Source: Gallionella sp.
Lineage (GTDB): Bacteria > Pseudomonadota > Gammaproteobacteria > Burkholderiales > Gallionellaceae
Assembly (NCBI GenBank): GCA_023259035.1
Contig: JAHFRA010000004.1
Coordinates: 49,068 to 113,067 of the forward strand
Reading direction: 5' to 3'
Length of the DNA: 64,000 nucleotides
Shown: one piece after another, positions 53,643 to 56,078 of the stretch
Layout: each line of letters starts with the position of its first letter
How positions within the stretch are numbered: position 1 is the first letter of the stretch
Notes under the pieces: generated by a model
What the model saw: the letters and a program-made list of their open reading frames with translations, nothing else
Databases searched by the model: none
What the model was told of the DNA's origin: nothing
Program-made: the position numbers and the translations under genes

Positions 53643-53888
53643 ATGGCACGCGAATTTGAGCAGATACTGTACTCCACGCTTTTTGGTGCAGCGGTCAGTT
53701 TAAGTGCAGTGGTTGTCTCACTTGTTTTAGTGCGGCGGTGGTTTGGGTGCAGTGGCTGGTTGAGCGGTTGCCTGCTGCTGTGGTCATTGCTGGTTGCATT
53801 TGTGGGGTTGTCTATGTTGCTGCTTGCTTCGAGTGCCATCCCTACCCTTCGCTCAAGCGGGACGCCGCAAAAGCGCGGCGCCCCTTAG
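53643..53888 (+). CDS. Small hydrophobic ORF reading through attC1, possible cassette remnant
   Basis: 81 aa with two hydrophobic stretches; stop lies inside attC1. Confidence 0.4.
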   Translation: MAREFEQILYSTLFGAAVSLSAVVVSLVLVRRWFGCSGWLSGCLLLWSLLVAFVGLSMLLLASSAIPTLRSSGTPQKRGAP

Positions 53889-53901
53889 CTCCACGTTGGA
53901 C
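53839..53901 (+). other. attC site 1 (63 bp, degenerate R'')
   Basis: 52/63 identical to attC3; R' GTTGGAC; R'' TCCCTAC lacks AAC. Confidence 0.85.
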
Positions 53902-53907
53902 CTCACG

Positions 53908-54447
53908 ATGACGGTACCCTCTGAAGATGATGTGCTTTTGCTATTGGGGTACGTTGTATTCGAGATGCAGGAAACCGAAGCCACCCTGCATCTCGCAATG
54001 ACGGTCGCTTTTGGGCTTTCAGTCGCCAAATCTGTTGACCAACTTCGTGATTTGTACGGTAAGAAAACACTCGGTCAATTCTTGGCGTTGGTCAGGGAGA
54101 AGATCGGCCTAAGTCCCTCATTCGATGAATACATGAAGGACTACATCGAGCGCAGAAATTTCGCTATTCACAACTTTTCGCGAGGTTCGATCTTTAATAT
54201 CTATAAGGAAGAAGGGCGCGAGAAGCTTGCCAACTTCTTGACTGATTTGCGATATCGAAACAGAAAAATCAAGTTCACGTTTGTTGCGCTCACGGAAGCC
54301 TGGATGAGGATATTAAGCCCAGAGTACGCGAACGACTCCAAGCTGGCCGATCTTCGCAAGACTGAGTTTTACAAGGAGATTGTGAAGGATTTCGTGCCGT
54401 CGCTACGCACAATCTTCGGTAAAGGTGACCAGAAAAACGGTGAATAA
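53908..54447 (+). CDS. Cassette protein with a HEPN-like RNxxxH motif
   Basis: 179 aa; KKTLGQF and ERRNFAIHNF; begins 7 bp after attC1. Confidence 0.75.
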   Translation: MTVPSEDDVLLLLGYVVFEMQETEATLHLAMTVAFGLSVAKSVDQLRDLYGKKTLGQFLALVREKIGLSPSFDEYMKDYIERRNFAIHNFSRGSIFNIYKEEGREKLANFLTDLRYRNRKIKFTFVALTEAWMRILSPEYANDSKLADLRKTEFYKEIVKDFVPSLRTIFGKGDQKNGE

Positions 54448-54455
54448 GGTGCGCG

Positions 54456-54519
54456 GCCCAACCCATTATTCGAGAGGGACAGCCCAGAAGCGGGCTGCCC
54501 CTCGATTCAAACGTTAAGC
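54456..54519 (+). other. attC site 2 (64 bp)
   Basis: R'' GCCCAAC, R' GTTAAGC, internal palindrome GGGACAGCCC...GGGCTGCCCC. Confidence 0.9.
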
Positions 54520-54542
54520 AATCTGAAACGAAAGCTGTTCTC

Positions 54543-54962
54543 TTGATAAAACTAGCACAAAACGACAACGAAATAGCCGATTTTTTCCAAGTAATGAAAC
54601 AGCTTCGCACAGAGCTTGTGGAAGCCTCTTTTGTTCCCCTTGTTCGGGAGCTAATGAGTGATGGTTACCAACTCGCATACCTTCGATATGAAACTCAGGT
54701 TGTGTGCGTTGCCGGATTTAAAGTTTCAAAAAATCTATTTTTTGGTAAGCACCTCTATGTCGAAGGCTTGTCAACATTGGAGAGTGAACGATCAAAAAAT
54801 TATGGCAAGCAAATGATGGTTTGGCTTCGTAATTTTGCTACGGCTGAAGGGCGCAGCGTTTTCCATCTCGATTCTGGCGTTCAACGTCATTGGGCACACA
54901 AGTTTTACTTGAACCAAAATATGAATATTGTCTGTTACCATTTTGCAGAAAAAATTGCCTAA
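54543..54962 (+). CDS. Cassette-borne GNAT N-acetyltransferase
   Basis: LYVEGLST, RSKNYGKQMM (motif A), HLDSGVQR..AHKFY; stop TAA inside attC3 R''. Confidence 0.85.
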   Translation: MIKLAQNDNEIADFFQVMKQLRTELVEASFVPLVRELMSDGYQLAYLRYETQVVCVAGFKVSKNLFFGKHLYVEGLSTLESERSKNYGKQMMVWLRNFATAEGRSVFHLDSGVQRHWAHKFYLNQNMNIVCYHFAEKIA

Positions 54963-55019
54963 CCCTACGCTCAAGCGGGACTGCGCAAAAGCGCGCAGCC
55001 CCTTAGCTCCACGTTAGGT
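54957..55019 (+). other. attC site 3 (63 bp)
   Basis: R'' GCCTAAC, R' GTTAGGT, stem CTGCGC-AAAA-GCGCGCAG. Confidence 0.92.
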
Positions 55020-55047
55020 TGCACAAAGACAGCACCGTGAGGACATC

Positions 55048-55962
55048 TTGACGCAACTACTCTCAGCACATCACGCGGCAAAAAATATTTGCCTTCACTG
55101 GAAAGATGCCGGTTTCGAGATTGGCGAGGCTCCTCTTGGTGCAAGCGTCAATCAAGAGTTCGGACAAGACCTCTCTGCCGCGCCCGTTGCCGCCTTGTAC
55201 GTCTTCGTGGATGAATACTTGGCGCTATTGCGCTACACGACGTACTACTTCCTGTCCGCAGTCCCACAGTCTGGTCAGCGAGCAATGCTCTTTAATCGCC
55301 TAGCAGTAAGGCAATTGCGAACTGTTGCGGCGATTCGAGCACTGTGCGCATTGGGGCTCGATGGGAATGCGCGAGTACAACTCCGCTTACTCCATGAGAT
55401 TTCCCTACTATGGATTCGTGTCCGTATTGATCCTCAAGCGCTGGAAGGCTTTCAAGCAGCTAACACACCAGAGGCATCAAACGCGTTTTGGTACAGGTAC
55501 ATATCTAAGGGGAAGAACGAGAAATGGCTCGAGCGAGAGCTTGCGGACAAAAAACATGTGTGGCTCGGAGCGTTCGATAAGGCGCTTGAGGAACTGAAGC
55601 TCAAAGTTTCCATAACTGCACATCCGTCCTTCCTTCAAGCCTACCTCGATTCACGCGAGGACTGGCACGACCAATCTGATCGCTTCATTCTTGGCTCACC
55701 CTCAAGCGCATCACACTTCACACTGTCCATGACGTTACTGGCTGCTGCAATTCCGTTTTCTCTGAAGCCTGAGCCCGCATACGGACTAACAGCGATAGAT
55801 ATGCGAACTCGCGGGACTTGGCATCCAGTTCATTCGGTTGCTATCGACTGGGAAACATACAACCAGAAACTGCGTGACATGTTTCCAAGGCTCTTTCTCG
55901 CTTCAATTCGCTTTACGCAGGAACTTCGCGAGGCGGAAAAGAGTGACAAAAGTGCAACCTAA
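55048..55962 (+). CDS. Cassette hypothetical protein, DUF5677-like helical pattern
   Basis: 304 aa; GAGG RBS with TTG start; ARVQLRLLHE and VSITAHPS; stop inside ACCTAAC. Confidence 0.75.
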   Translation: MTQLLSAHHAAKNICLHWKDAGFEIGEAPLGASVNQEFGQDLSAAPVAALYVFVDEYLALLRYTTYYFLSAVPQSGQRAMLFNRLAVRQLRTVAAIRALCALGLDGNARVQLRLLHEISLLWIRVRIDPQALEGFQAANTPEASNAFWYRYISKGKNEKWLERELADKKHVWLGAFDKALEELKLKVSITAHPSFLQAYLDSREDWHDQSDRFILGSPSSASHFTLSMTLLAAAIPFSLKPEPAYGLTAIDMRTRGTWHPVHSVAIDWETYNQKLRDMFPRLFLASIRFTQELREAEKSDKSAT

Positions 55963-56078
55963 CCAATCATCCTAAAAACCGCAGTTAAAGCCACTCAAAT
56001 TGGCTGAAAACCACGTGGATAGGGGATTTCGAAAGTGTTAAAGACCTCTCCAAGCAGGCGGGGTTATCCCCGGCAACT

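Follow-up and report, generated by a model that had tools for sequence, protein, structure and literature searches.

We examined the interval between the core genes mutY and ubiX in a metagenome-assembled Gallionella genome to see whether integron cassettes lie embedded there away from any integrase and, if so, how they could have arrived and whether they could still move. The window analysed here (the whole stretch of DNA under study, 64,000 nucleotides) had been predicted from its letters to contain an integrase-less integron cassette array (CALIN) at this place. Based on covariance modelling and on comparison with related genomes, we consider it highly probable that the interval represents a genuine CALIN holding three gene cassettes.

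The mutY-ubiX interval and its separate insertions

The left core flank is mutY, coding for an A/G-specific adenine glycosylase (51487-52605, + strand; Pfam HhH-GPD, NUDIX_4 and EndIII_4Fe-2S), and the right one is the convergent ubiX, coding for a flavin prenyltransferase (56079-56678, - strand; Pfam Flavoprotein, 169.8 bits). At the nucleotide level the former is 74-83% identical to its counterparts in relatives, with homology ending at about 52572-52578, and the latter is 78-89% identical, with homology beginning at about 56068-56086. The gap between the two genes measures 3.47 kb here as against 70-750 bp in eight relatives (G005, G008, G012, G013, G014, G015, G021 and G024), and the spacers of at least eight genomes of the genus are non-homologous in sequence. 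Measured against these other members of the genus, the interval is an insertion. None of 100 other species of the genus encodes the protein of cassette 1 or that of cassette 3, and the GC content of the cassettes is 0.43-0.51 versus 0.60 in the flanks. The reading as an array had been said to fail if its genes were conserved in synteny as core genes; the short, unrelated spacers of the relatives and the absence of these proteins show that they are not.

Part of the inserted DNA does not belong to the array. A MITE-like element of 169 bp (52740-52908) with 23-bp perfect terminal inverted repeats is flanked by a 9-bp target duplication, GATAACCAA, at 52731-39 and 52909-17; it is present in multiple copies of 84-99% identity in the same genome (contigs C26, C62 and C50) and is found in relatives too, and is a separate insertion into the same spacer. 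It is followed by a tumA-tumE toxin-antitoxin pair (52954-53587, + strand), with the tumA ORF at 52954-53217 (probable start 52987) and tumE at 53168-53587. The two genes are adjacent and co-directional, and both products score above the NCBIfam equivalog cut-offs (TumA 116.8 bits versus 100; TumE 170 bits versus 90), with further matches to Pfam TumE and PADLOC PDC-M44A/B. We considered whether this module might itself be an integron cassette and rejected the idea, there being no attC on either side of it here or around its homologues in two other genomes (G019 and G017). Between it and the array an orphan ORF (53643-53888, + strand) codes for a hydrophobic 81-aa product and runs into the first attC; it may be what is left of a "cassette 0", or may be no gene at all. 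Its sole match among 5.8 billion proteins is itself, and it matches no family.

The genes mutY, tumAE and those of the cassettes all point the same way, and 52500-56200 contains no predicted intrinsic terminator. Ahead of the array, a simple consensus scan finds a single promoter-like site, the sigma-70-like promoter before tumA (52925-52953); the earlier statement that the cassette ORFs have no obvious promoters thus stands, at the level of such a scan only. Without a Pc, any expression of the cassettes would be by read-through from mutY or from the tumAE promoter.

attC sites, cassette boundaries and array ends

The attC sites were assessed with a genus-specific covariance model (R1), trained solely on 28 intI-adjacent attC sites from the integrons of relatives (G010, G013 twice, G014, G016 and others). 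In the training set the L stem covaries in a compensatory manner, with pairs such as GC:16/AU:11 and GC:9/UA:9/CG:7. The attC family, which the array shares with the integrons of the genus, measures 57-78 nt and has the consensus GCCTAACCCGGCAGTCAAGCGGGACTGCGCAAAAGCGCGCAGCCCCTTACTTTTACGTTAGGC. Rejection of all three predicted sites by such a model had been named as fatal to the prediction; R1 instead accepts all three, of 63, 64 and 63 nt, with scores of 70.1 bits (E 1e-14) for attC1, 53.0 bits (E 2e-10) for attC2 and 86.3 bits (E 1e-18) for attC3, and finds no further match above 10.6 bits over the window. A search of Rfam returned no attC family and only noise matches.

The three sites are 76-81% identical to one another. 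Those at 54456-54519 (attC2, + strand, 64 nt; R'' GCCCAAC at 54456-62, R' GTTAAGC at 54513-19) and 54957-55019 (attC3, + strand, 63 nt; R'' GCCTAAC at 54957-63, R' GTTAGGT at 55013-19) are canonical and carry the paired RYYYAAC/GTTRRRY boxes. In the folded bottom strands an R stem is followed by an unpaired spacer, then by an L stem with two to three single-base bulges (T, G) on its 3' arm, which is the '' arm, and finally by a short terminal hairpin of 7 bp, with -14.8 kcal/mol (z -3.4) for attC2 and -16.9 kcal/mol (z -3.7) for attC3. The original prediction of three sites needs correcting for attC1 (53839-53901, + strand, 63 nt), which lacks the paired boxes: its L boxes, terminal hairpin and R' (GTTGGAC, 53895-53901) are intact, and its R'' is damaged to a degenerate TCCCTAC, with TAC for AAC, 4/7 pairing with its own R' and an A·A mismatch in the AAC/GTT triplet. 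Its bottom-strand fold has a z of -1.95 and the R stem does not form; R'' apart, it is nearly identical to an attC of the G021 integron.

The thresholds used, those of Cury et al. 2016, call for same-strand attC sites separated from their neighbours by less than 4 kb, with 4 kb free of intI and 10 kb in the case of pseudogenes. The three + strand sites, starting at 53839, 54456 and 54957, are spaced by 617 and 501 bp, and a TIGR02249 search of the whole genome together with tblastn of the window finds no integron integrase nearby. Within the 64 kb neither an intI nor a remnant of one was found by TIGR02249 or by tblastn with two IntI proteins (best E 1.6-2.4), in keeping with the earlier claim. 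Since a group of two or more attC sites without an integron integrase in the vicinity is by definition a CALIN (PMC4889954), the element belongs to this class, as had been predicted. A complete integron would have an intI with attI next to it and a Pc ahead of the cassettes; the array lacks these, and upstream of attC1 lie the orphan ORF, the toxin-antitoxin module and the MITE rather than attI or intI.

Cassette boundaries fall at G|TT, delimiting cassette 1 (53896-54513, + strand, 618 bp), cassette 2 (54514-55013, + strand, 500 bp) and cassette 3 (55014-55976, + strand). On direct reading, the R'' of each cassette is complementary to the R' preceding it at 6/7, 6/7 and 7/7 positions for cassettes 1, 2 and 3, exactly as originally described; in total 19 of 21 positions pair when the boxes are taken per cassette, versus 15 of 21 when they are taken per site as placed in the array. 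For cassette 3 the complementarity extends to a perfect 12-mer (12/12; GTTAGGTTGCAC and GTGCAACCTAAC). The two stop codons said to lie in R'' do so, being the TAA of the ORFs at 54543-54962 and 55048-55962.

The last attC had been described as cut directly after R'', and this has to be amended. Alignment to an intact copy of cassette 3 in another array (L037) reveals a stub at 55957-55976 (+ strand), in which R'' (ACCTAAC, 55957-63) is followed by a spacer and the start of L'', 9-13 further nucleotides in all, to about 55972-55976. This right end, a stub of 16-20 nt, is not at a crossover point. The same alignment disposes of an idea we had entertained, that both ends lie at AA|C of R'' and record inverted, top-strand recombination by IntI into a secondary site, because the window retains 9-13 nt past R'' and its right end is therefore not a crossover point. 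We likewise rejected the idea that 55950-56050 contains a fourth attC, of a different type, no attC-like fold being present downstream of the stub (z 0.04). The array would be best described as a fragment or relic with both ends trimmed by integrase-independent events, the left trimming leaving the first attC without the AAC of its R'' and the right one cutting the last attC 9-13 nt beyond R''. The label of remnant given to it earlier is apt because both ends are eroded.

Cassette mobility and cargo

Recurrence of ORF-plus-attC units was compared for cassettes 1 and 3. The alignments show that both are shared as units with other metagenomic arrays, the homology ending at G|TT. The ORF of cassette 1 together with its own attC is 82% identical to a unit in a different array of four attC sites that lies between other neighbours (L128), the homology spanning 53904-54516, from just past the preceding R' to the R' of the cassette itself. 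Cassette 3 is 89% identical at the nucleotide level to the first cassette in L037, located at attI beside intI, with homology beginning at the R' box GTTAGGTTGCAC.

The ORF of cassette 1 (53908-54447) codes for an all-alpha protein of 179 aa, with an invariant R83-N84-x3-H88-N89 (R83-N84-x3-H88 being checked across 24 homologues) and with 27 homologues. Its relatives reach 84% identity in Moraxellaceae, and Noviherbaspirillum and Azospirillum have the gene too, as a single-gene island. AF2 predicts an all-alpha structure (pLDDT 83); a Foldseek search with this model against the PDB gave no fold match with E below 2, and the sequence has no PDB profile match. Given the RNxxxH motif and the predicted fold, the protein could represent a novel effector of HEPN-like type that integrons have spread; the Pfam HEPN families gave only stray matches, in one of 24 members (HEPN_Apea, E 0.048; HepT-like, E 0.15). 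Cassette 2 (ORF 54543-54962) codes for a 139-aa GNAT acetyltransferase (Pfam Acetyltransf_1, 26.2 bits versus a cut-off of 20.7), with no equivalog-level assignment in NCBIfam and no PDB sequence match. The ORF of cassette 3 (55048-55962) codes for another all-alpha protein, of 304 aa and with 20 homologues, which is weakly DUF5677-like, the match being sub-threshold in 19 of 21 family members; its AF2 model (pLDDT 84.5) has no match in the PDB. For the function of the products of cassettes 1 and 3, Pfam, NCBIfam, PADLOC, PDB sequence search and AF2 with Foldseek against the PDB returned nothing significant.

Origin of the array and possible service in trans

The genome is a MAG of 68 contigs, 93.65% complete and with 4.94% contamination. 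An intact intI lies at C15:32562-33503 (486.8 bits versus the TIGR02249 cut-off of 265), and a split, frameshifted one, the nearest relic, at C58:24029-24971, on the same contig as the array and 78 kb away from it. Both are accompanied by attC sites of the same family (at C58 in 22.4-22.9 kb), which are found also on C57 and C54, so that the genome search proposed with the original prediction turned up both an integrase and further sites. Across the genus, intI scores above the cut-off in 34 of 61 genomes.

A draft of this kind, together with repeats such as attC that can confuse assemblers, could in principle yield a repeat-mediated mis-join of integron DNA into a core contig. We regard this as very improbable: the segment lies inside a 126-kb contig and is framed by core genes, the sequence at either junction is unique, and there is no long exact repeat for mis-joining because the attC sites, of less than 65 nt, are of limited identity to one another. 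To the notion that the repeats are some other palindromic intergenic repeat, REP-like or terminator-like, among ordinary genes we give almost no credence; GC-rich hairpins right after stop codons do resemble terminators and REPs, yet arrays of the same repeat family begin beside intI, with the canonical divergent arrangement, at two places in this genome and in five or more relatives. Moreover, RYYYAAC...GTTRRRY boxes and a covarying L stem are present, no T-tract terminator is predicted, and in cassettes 1 and 3 the ORF and its repeat move together as one unit with breaks at G|TT.

As to how the cassettes arrived, losing intI is accepted as one way in which CALINs arise (PMC4889954) and degraded intI genes are common in the genus, including the one on this very contig, which might suggest that a complete integron formerly stood at mutY-ubiX and that its intI and attI were deleted in place. 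This appears quite improbable, since the 64 kb holds no intI fragment, no relative examined has an integron at mutY-ubiX, and what precedes the array is the toxin-antitoxin module and the MITE. A single 80-kb inversion parting the broken-intI integron (C58:22-25 kb) from the array would fit in orientation; we rejected it as unparsimonious because it would break the ancestral mutY-ubiX adjacency, which is intact. Unlikely too, while deserving more serious thought, is direct placement of the cassettes by the genome's integrase through attC x attG recombination (a secondary, GWT-type site), with later erosion of the ends. In its favour are the intact IntI and the profile of a small array in a convergent intergenic spacer with no directly flanking IS and no intI pseudogene nearby, a profile which, the spacer apart, has been proposed for attG-derived CALINs and SALINs (10.1101/2022.09.11.507474). 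The attG-inserted cassettes and SALINs of Loot et al. (10.1101/2022.09.11.507474) likewise lie off-platform in IntI-bearing genomes, and their expression, too, would depend on neighbouring promoters. However, such an event should yield a left junction reduced to TTRRRY and a right one formed by a complete hybrid attC, whereas this array begins with a nearly whole attC after 250 bp of orphan DNA without a matching R' remnant (the sole upstream GTT, at 53606, gives 3/7 complementarity) and ends in a truncated one, such that at least one extra deletion must be assumed; it also has several cassettes and not one. The predicted empty site, the precise-excision 24-mer GTGCCATCCCTACCAATCATCCTA, is absent from the metagenome contigs, which is weak evidence against this route.

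For the CALIN as it stands, servicing in trans by the genome's own IntI is plausible, the linkage of its contig to the one with the intact intI resting on binning. Cassette 2 could still be open to excision by the C15 integrase (attC2 x attC3), and so might cassette 1 if the damaged attC1 still folds; cassette 3 would be fixed in place because its own attC is gone. More tentatively, and as a less likely reading, the array could be a living satellite rather than a fossil, in which attC2 and attC3 would recombine with the C15 IntI, cassettes would shuttle between mutY-ubiX and the two platforms, expression would come from Pc-free read-through of tumAE and the toxin-antitoxin module would stabilise the island.

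Set against known elements, the array is a typical small, eroded CALIN, an ordinary example of a well-known kind, such elements being already catalogued by the thousands (PMC4889954; 10.1101/2022.09.11.507474). With the CALINs of Cury et al. 2016 (Nucleic Acids Res 44:4539; PMC4889954) it shares its small size (83% of them have fewer than six attC sites), cargo unrelated to resistance cassettes, and an IntI encoded elsewhere in the genome, as is the case for about half of them. There is no categorical difference; its particulars are the erosion of both ends, the TumA/TumE module and MITE in the spacer, and the host, an uncultured Gallionellaceae-like chemolithotroph. The sedentary chromosomal integrons of Betaproteobacteria, including those of the same genus, have the same attC family, a single promoterless ORF per cassette and stop codons often in R'', as here; unlike them, the array has no intI, attI or Pc, only three cassettes, and no toxin-antitoxin cassette in the array proper, the module lying outside without attC. 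The array is one more well-documented environmental example of its class and opens no new question. It shows a cassette array inside the core genome of an iron-oxidiser-like betaproteobacterium, with two cassettes shown by comparison to travel between integrons. It is also a source of three uncharacterised cassette proteins, and might offer a modest example on which to ask if arrays without an integrase of their own receive service in trans.

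attC sites in the mutY-ubiX spacer

Between the stop codon of mutY (52605) and that of the convergent ubiX (56079), as read from the sequence, we found three short, GC-rich, imperfect palindromes on the + strand, each with one + strand ORF downstream (3/3). attC1 (53839-53901, +), with a 3' box GTTGGAC (GTTRRRY) and an R'' of TCCCTAC, is followed by the cassette 1 ORF (53908-54447, +, 179 aa); attC2 (54456-54519, +), running from GCCCAAC (RYYYAAC) to GTTAAGC (GTTRRRY), by the cassette 2 ORF (54543-54962, +, 139 aa); and attC3 (54957-55019, +), running from GCCTAAC (RYYYAAC) to GTTAGGT (GTTRRRY), by the cassette 3 ORF (55048-55962, +, 304 aa). 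The only recognisable remainder of a site 3' of the last ORF is ACCTAAC at 55957-63. The ORFs of cassettes 2 and 3 both take their stop codon, TAA, from within R''. These units, with their boxes and two embedded stops, reproduce the original prediction, and recounting on the sequence gave exactly its complementarity values between the leading TTRRRY of each cassette and its own trailing R'' (6/7, 6/7 and 7/7 for cassettes 1 to 3). In cassette 3 the pairing extends to a perfect 12-mer (GTTAGGTTGCAC / GTGCAACCTAAC). Overall, R' and R'' match at 19/21 positions when paired by cassette versus 15/21 when paired by attC as placed in the array, as expected if every unit was formerly circular.

An Rfam scan of the window returned only noise, Rfam having no attC model. 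Searched at the DNA level, 40 relatives yielded clustered copies of the three palindromes in genomes of the same genus, and of no other cassette sequence. From nine such clusters we picked 28 sites by box pattern and fold energy, aligned them as bottom strands, and built a covariance model (R1), free of window sequence, on their RNAalifold consensus, which comprises an R and an L stem showing clear compensatory changes (GC:16/AU:11, GC:9/UA:9/CG:7, AU:16/GC:10). The training sites follow integron integrases directly, on their downstream side and in the canonical divergent orientation (G010:C7, two integrons on G013:C4, G014:C5 and G016:C13, given as genome and contig). With filters off, R1 recovered attC3 at 86.3, attC1 at 70.1 and attC2 at 53.0 bits (E 1e-18 to 2e-10), and nothing else in the 64 kb exceeded 10.6 bits; a model that rejected all three sites would have told against the original prediction, and this one accepts 3/3. 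Folded as ssDNA, the bottom strands have an R stem of 6-7 bp, then an unpaired spacer, then an L stem whose single-base bulges lie on its 3' ('') arm, and finally a terminal hairpin of 7 bp, with z-scores of -3.4 for attC2 and -3.7 for attC3. The exception is attC1, in which TAC replaces AAC in the R'' (TCCCTAC), so that no R stem forms; its z-score is only -1.95.

At least eight genomes of the genus (G005, G008, G012, G013, G014, G015, G021 and G024) have mutY next to ubiX, with a spacer of ~70-750 bp as against 3.47 kb in the window. Homology to the window ends at the mutY and ubiX gene ends, and the relatives' spacers are unrelated in sequence. The GC content of the spacer here, 0.43-0.53, is below that of each flanking gene (0.60) and of the genome (0.552). 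The proposed comparison of this interval finds it expanded here relative to those genomes, and neither the cassette 1 nor the cassette 3 protein occurs in 100 further species of the genus, which disposes of the possibility that these are syntenic core genes. In one relative (G014:C4, locus L010) the 674-bp spacer may contain a small gene.

The spacer holds further insertions. A MITE-like element of 169 bp (52740-52908) is bounded by perfect terminal inverted repeats of 23 bp (GGGTGCGATTCAAACTGATGTGG), contains an imperfect palindrome of 33 nt in its interior, and lies between the two copies of a 9-bp target-site duplication (GATAACCAA; whole 52731-52917), with several copies of the element at 84-99% identity in the host MAG (contigs C26, C50 and C62) and at 75-81% in relatives. 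Immediately upstream of the array lies a complete tumA/tumE toxin-antitoxin module (52925-53587) with its own promoter-like site, 75-82% identical in nucleotides to modules at other loci of two same-genus genomes; no attC adjoins the module at any of these three loci. The convergent mutY-ubiX spacer seems to be a place where insertions land repeatedly.

Cassettes as mobile units and their cargo

Among 5.8 billion proteins, just 20 are homologous to the cassette 3 protein. Its nearest homologue (93% aa, 89% nt) is encoded on a metagenomic contig, L037, as the first cassette beside a divergent tyrosine recombinase of 333 aa, which shares 67% identity with the IntI of the host genome. Homology with the window sets in at the R' box GTTAGGTTGCAC; 5' of this box the window has attC3, and L037 has attI-side sequence. 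Of the 27 homologues of cassette 1, that in L128 shares the entire unit at 82% identity (window 53904-54516, from just past the preceding R' to its own attC R') within a four-attC array with other neighbours, and that in L038 likewise has a same-family attC before it. In light of these breaks, an ORF and the attC after it behave as one transferable unit with its breakpoints at G|TT (cassettes 1 and 3).

Cassette 1 homologues are also seen alone, as single-gene islands amid housekeeping genes (L034, L035 and L036), in one Moraxellaceae MAG (84% aa), Noviherbaspirillum saxi and an AT-rich metagenomic contig (L036); in the first two, eroded attC-like sequence adjoins the gene. These islands look like fossil solitary cassettes. 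A further homologue is present in Azospirillum.

The cassette 1 protein has an all-alpha AF2 model (pLDDT 83) and an invariant RNxxxH, which across the 27-member family reads R-N-x3-H-N, and searches with family profiles and with the model found no HEPN family or fold match to support reading it as a HEPN protein. Cassette 2 encodes a generic GNAT protein (Pfam 26.2 bits) without a match to any resistance-type equivalog. The cassette 3 protein, again all-alpha (AF2, pLDDT 84.5), has no PDB fold match; 19 of the 21 family members hit DUF5677, below threshold only.

Array ends and route of arrival

In L037, cassette 3 is followed by a complete attC (44.6 bits with R1). Aligned to it, the right end of our array keeps R'' and a further ~9-13 nt (CAATCATCC...) before diverging, and so is not cut directly after R'' as originally thought. 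Since these nucleotides are kept and folding found no hairpin 3' of the stub, we infer that this end is a deletion or illegitimate junction within an attC, not an integrase crossover. The same comparison rules out top-strand recombination at R'' boxes. At the left end attC1 is complete save for its mutated R'', and the preceding 250 bp hold only an orphan 81-aa ORF, with no R' remnant complementing attC1. That ORF contains three imperfect direct repeats of 18 nt (GTTTAAGTGCAGTGGTTG and variants, 53698-53758).

From a simple attC x attG insertion one expects the left junction to carry TTRRRY by itself and the right junction an entire hybrid attC (10.1101/2022.09.11.507474); the observed anatomy is the opposite and would require extra deletions, and we consider this route less likely. 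Alternatively, an integron may have formed at mutY-ubiX and lost intI in place; with no integron at this locus in the relatives and no intI relic left, this is unlikely. Given the end anatomy and the points against both routes, we favour the array being a fragment whose ends were trimmed by events not involving integrase.

Integrases elsewhere and the nature of the element

Nothing resembling intI occurs in the 64-kb window, confirming the original prediction, and the genome-wide search it recommended, across the 68-contig MAG, located intI or same-family attC sites on contigs C15, C58, C57 and C54. An intact intI (C15:32562-33503; TIGR02249, the IntI profile, 486.8 bits, cut-off 265) heads a complete integron (32562-38056; locus L041, 2560-8057) whose array has at least four attC sites, one of them 120 nt in length, and is interrupted midway by an IS-like ORF of 425 aa. 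A second platform (C58:22415-24971) lies ~25 kb upstream of the window start; its intI (24029-24971), on the same contig and 78 kb from the array, is frameshifted and carries a TAA, and at least three same-family attC sites lie upstream of it on the other strand, both side and strand being as expected. A second CALIN, with two sites of the same family, is present at C57:6785-7482 and a lone attC of that family at C54:9210-9273. In the genus, 34/61 genomes have intI above the cut-off, several with two or with relics, and the nearest IntI relatives come from Gallionella, Gallionellaceae and Nitrosomonadales MAGs, on the strength of which the host is probably a Gallionella or another member of the Gallionellaceae.

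As attC2 and attC3 are canonical and share their family with the sites adjoining the intact integrase, we posit that the C15 IntI could excise cassette 2, and perhaps also cassette 1, or both jointly, if attC1 functions. By analogy with the reinsertion of CALIN cassettes at an integron discussed previously (PMC4889954), excised cassettes could re-enter at the attI of the C15 integron. Cassette 3, having lost its own attC, would be fixed in place. The array has no Pc promoter, a promoter-like site is predicted upstream of it only ahead of tumA, and 52500-56200 contains no predicted intrinsic terminator; transcripts would most likely come from predicted read-through from mutY or tumAE.

The element shows every testable feature of a CALIN (PMC4889954), a cluster of attC sites without an integron integrase, and resembles the typical case in being small, in its non-resistance cargo and in having IntI elsewhere in the genome. 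With 279 such elements reported in 2016 (PMC4889954) and 2961 later in RefSeq (10.1101/2022.09.11.507474), the mutY-ubiX CALIN is a real but ordinary feature of an already known kind.
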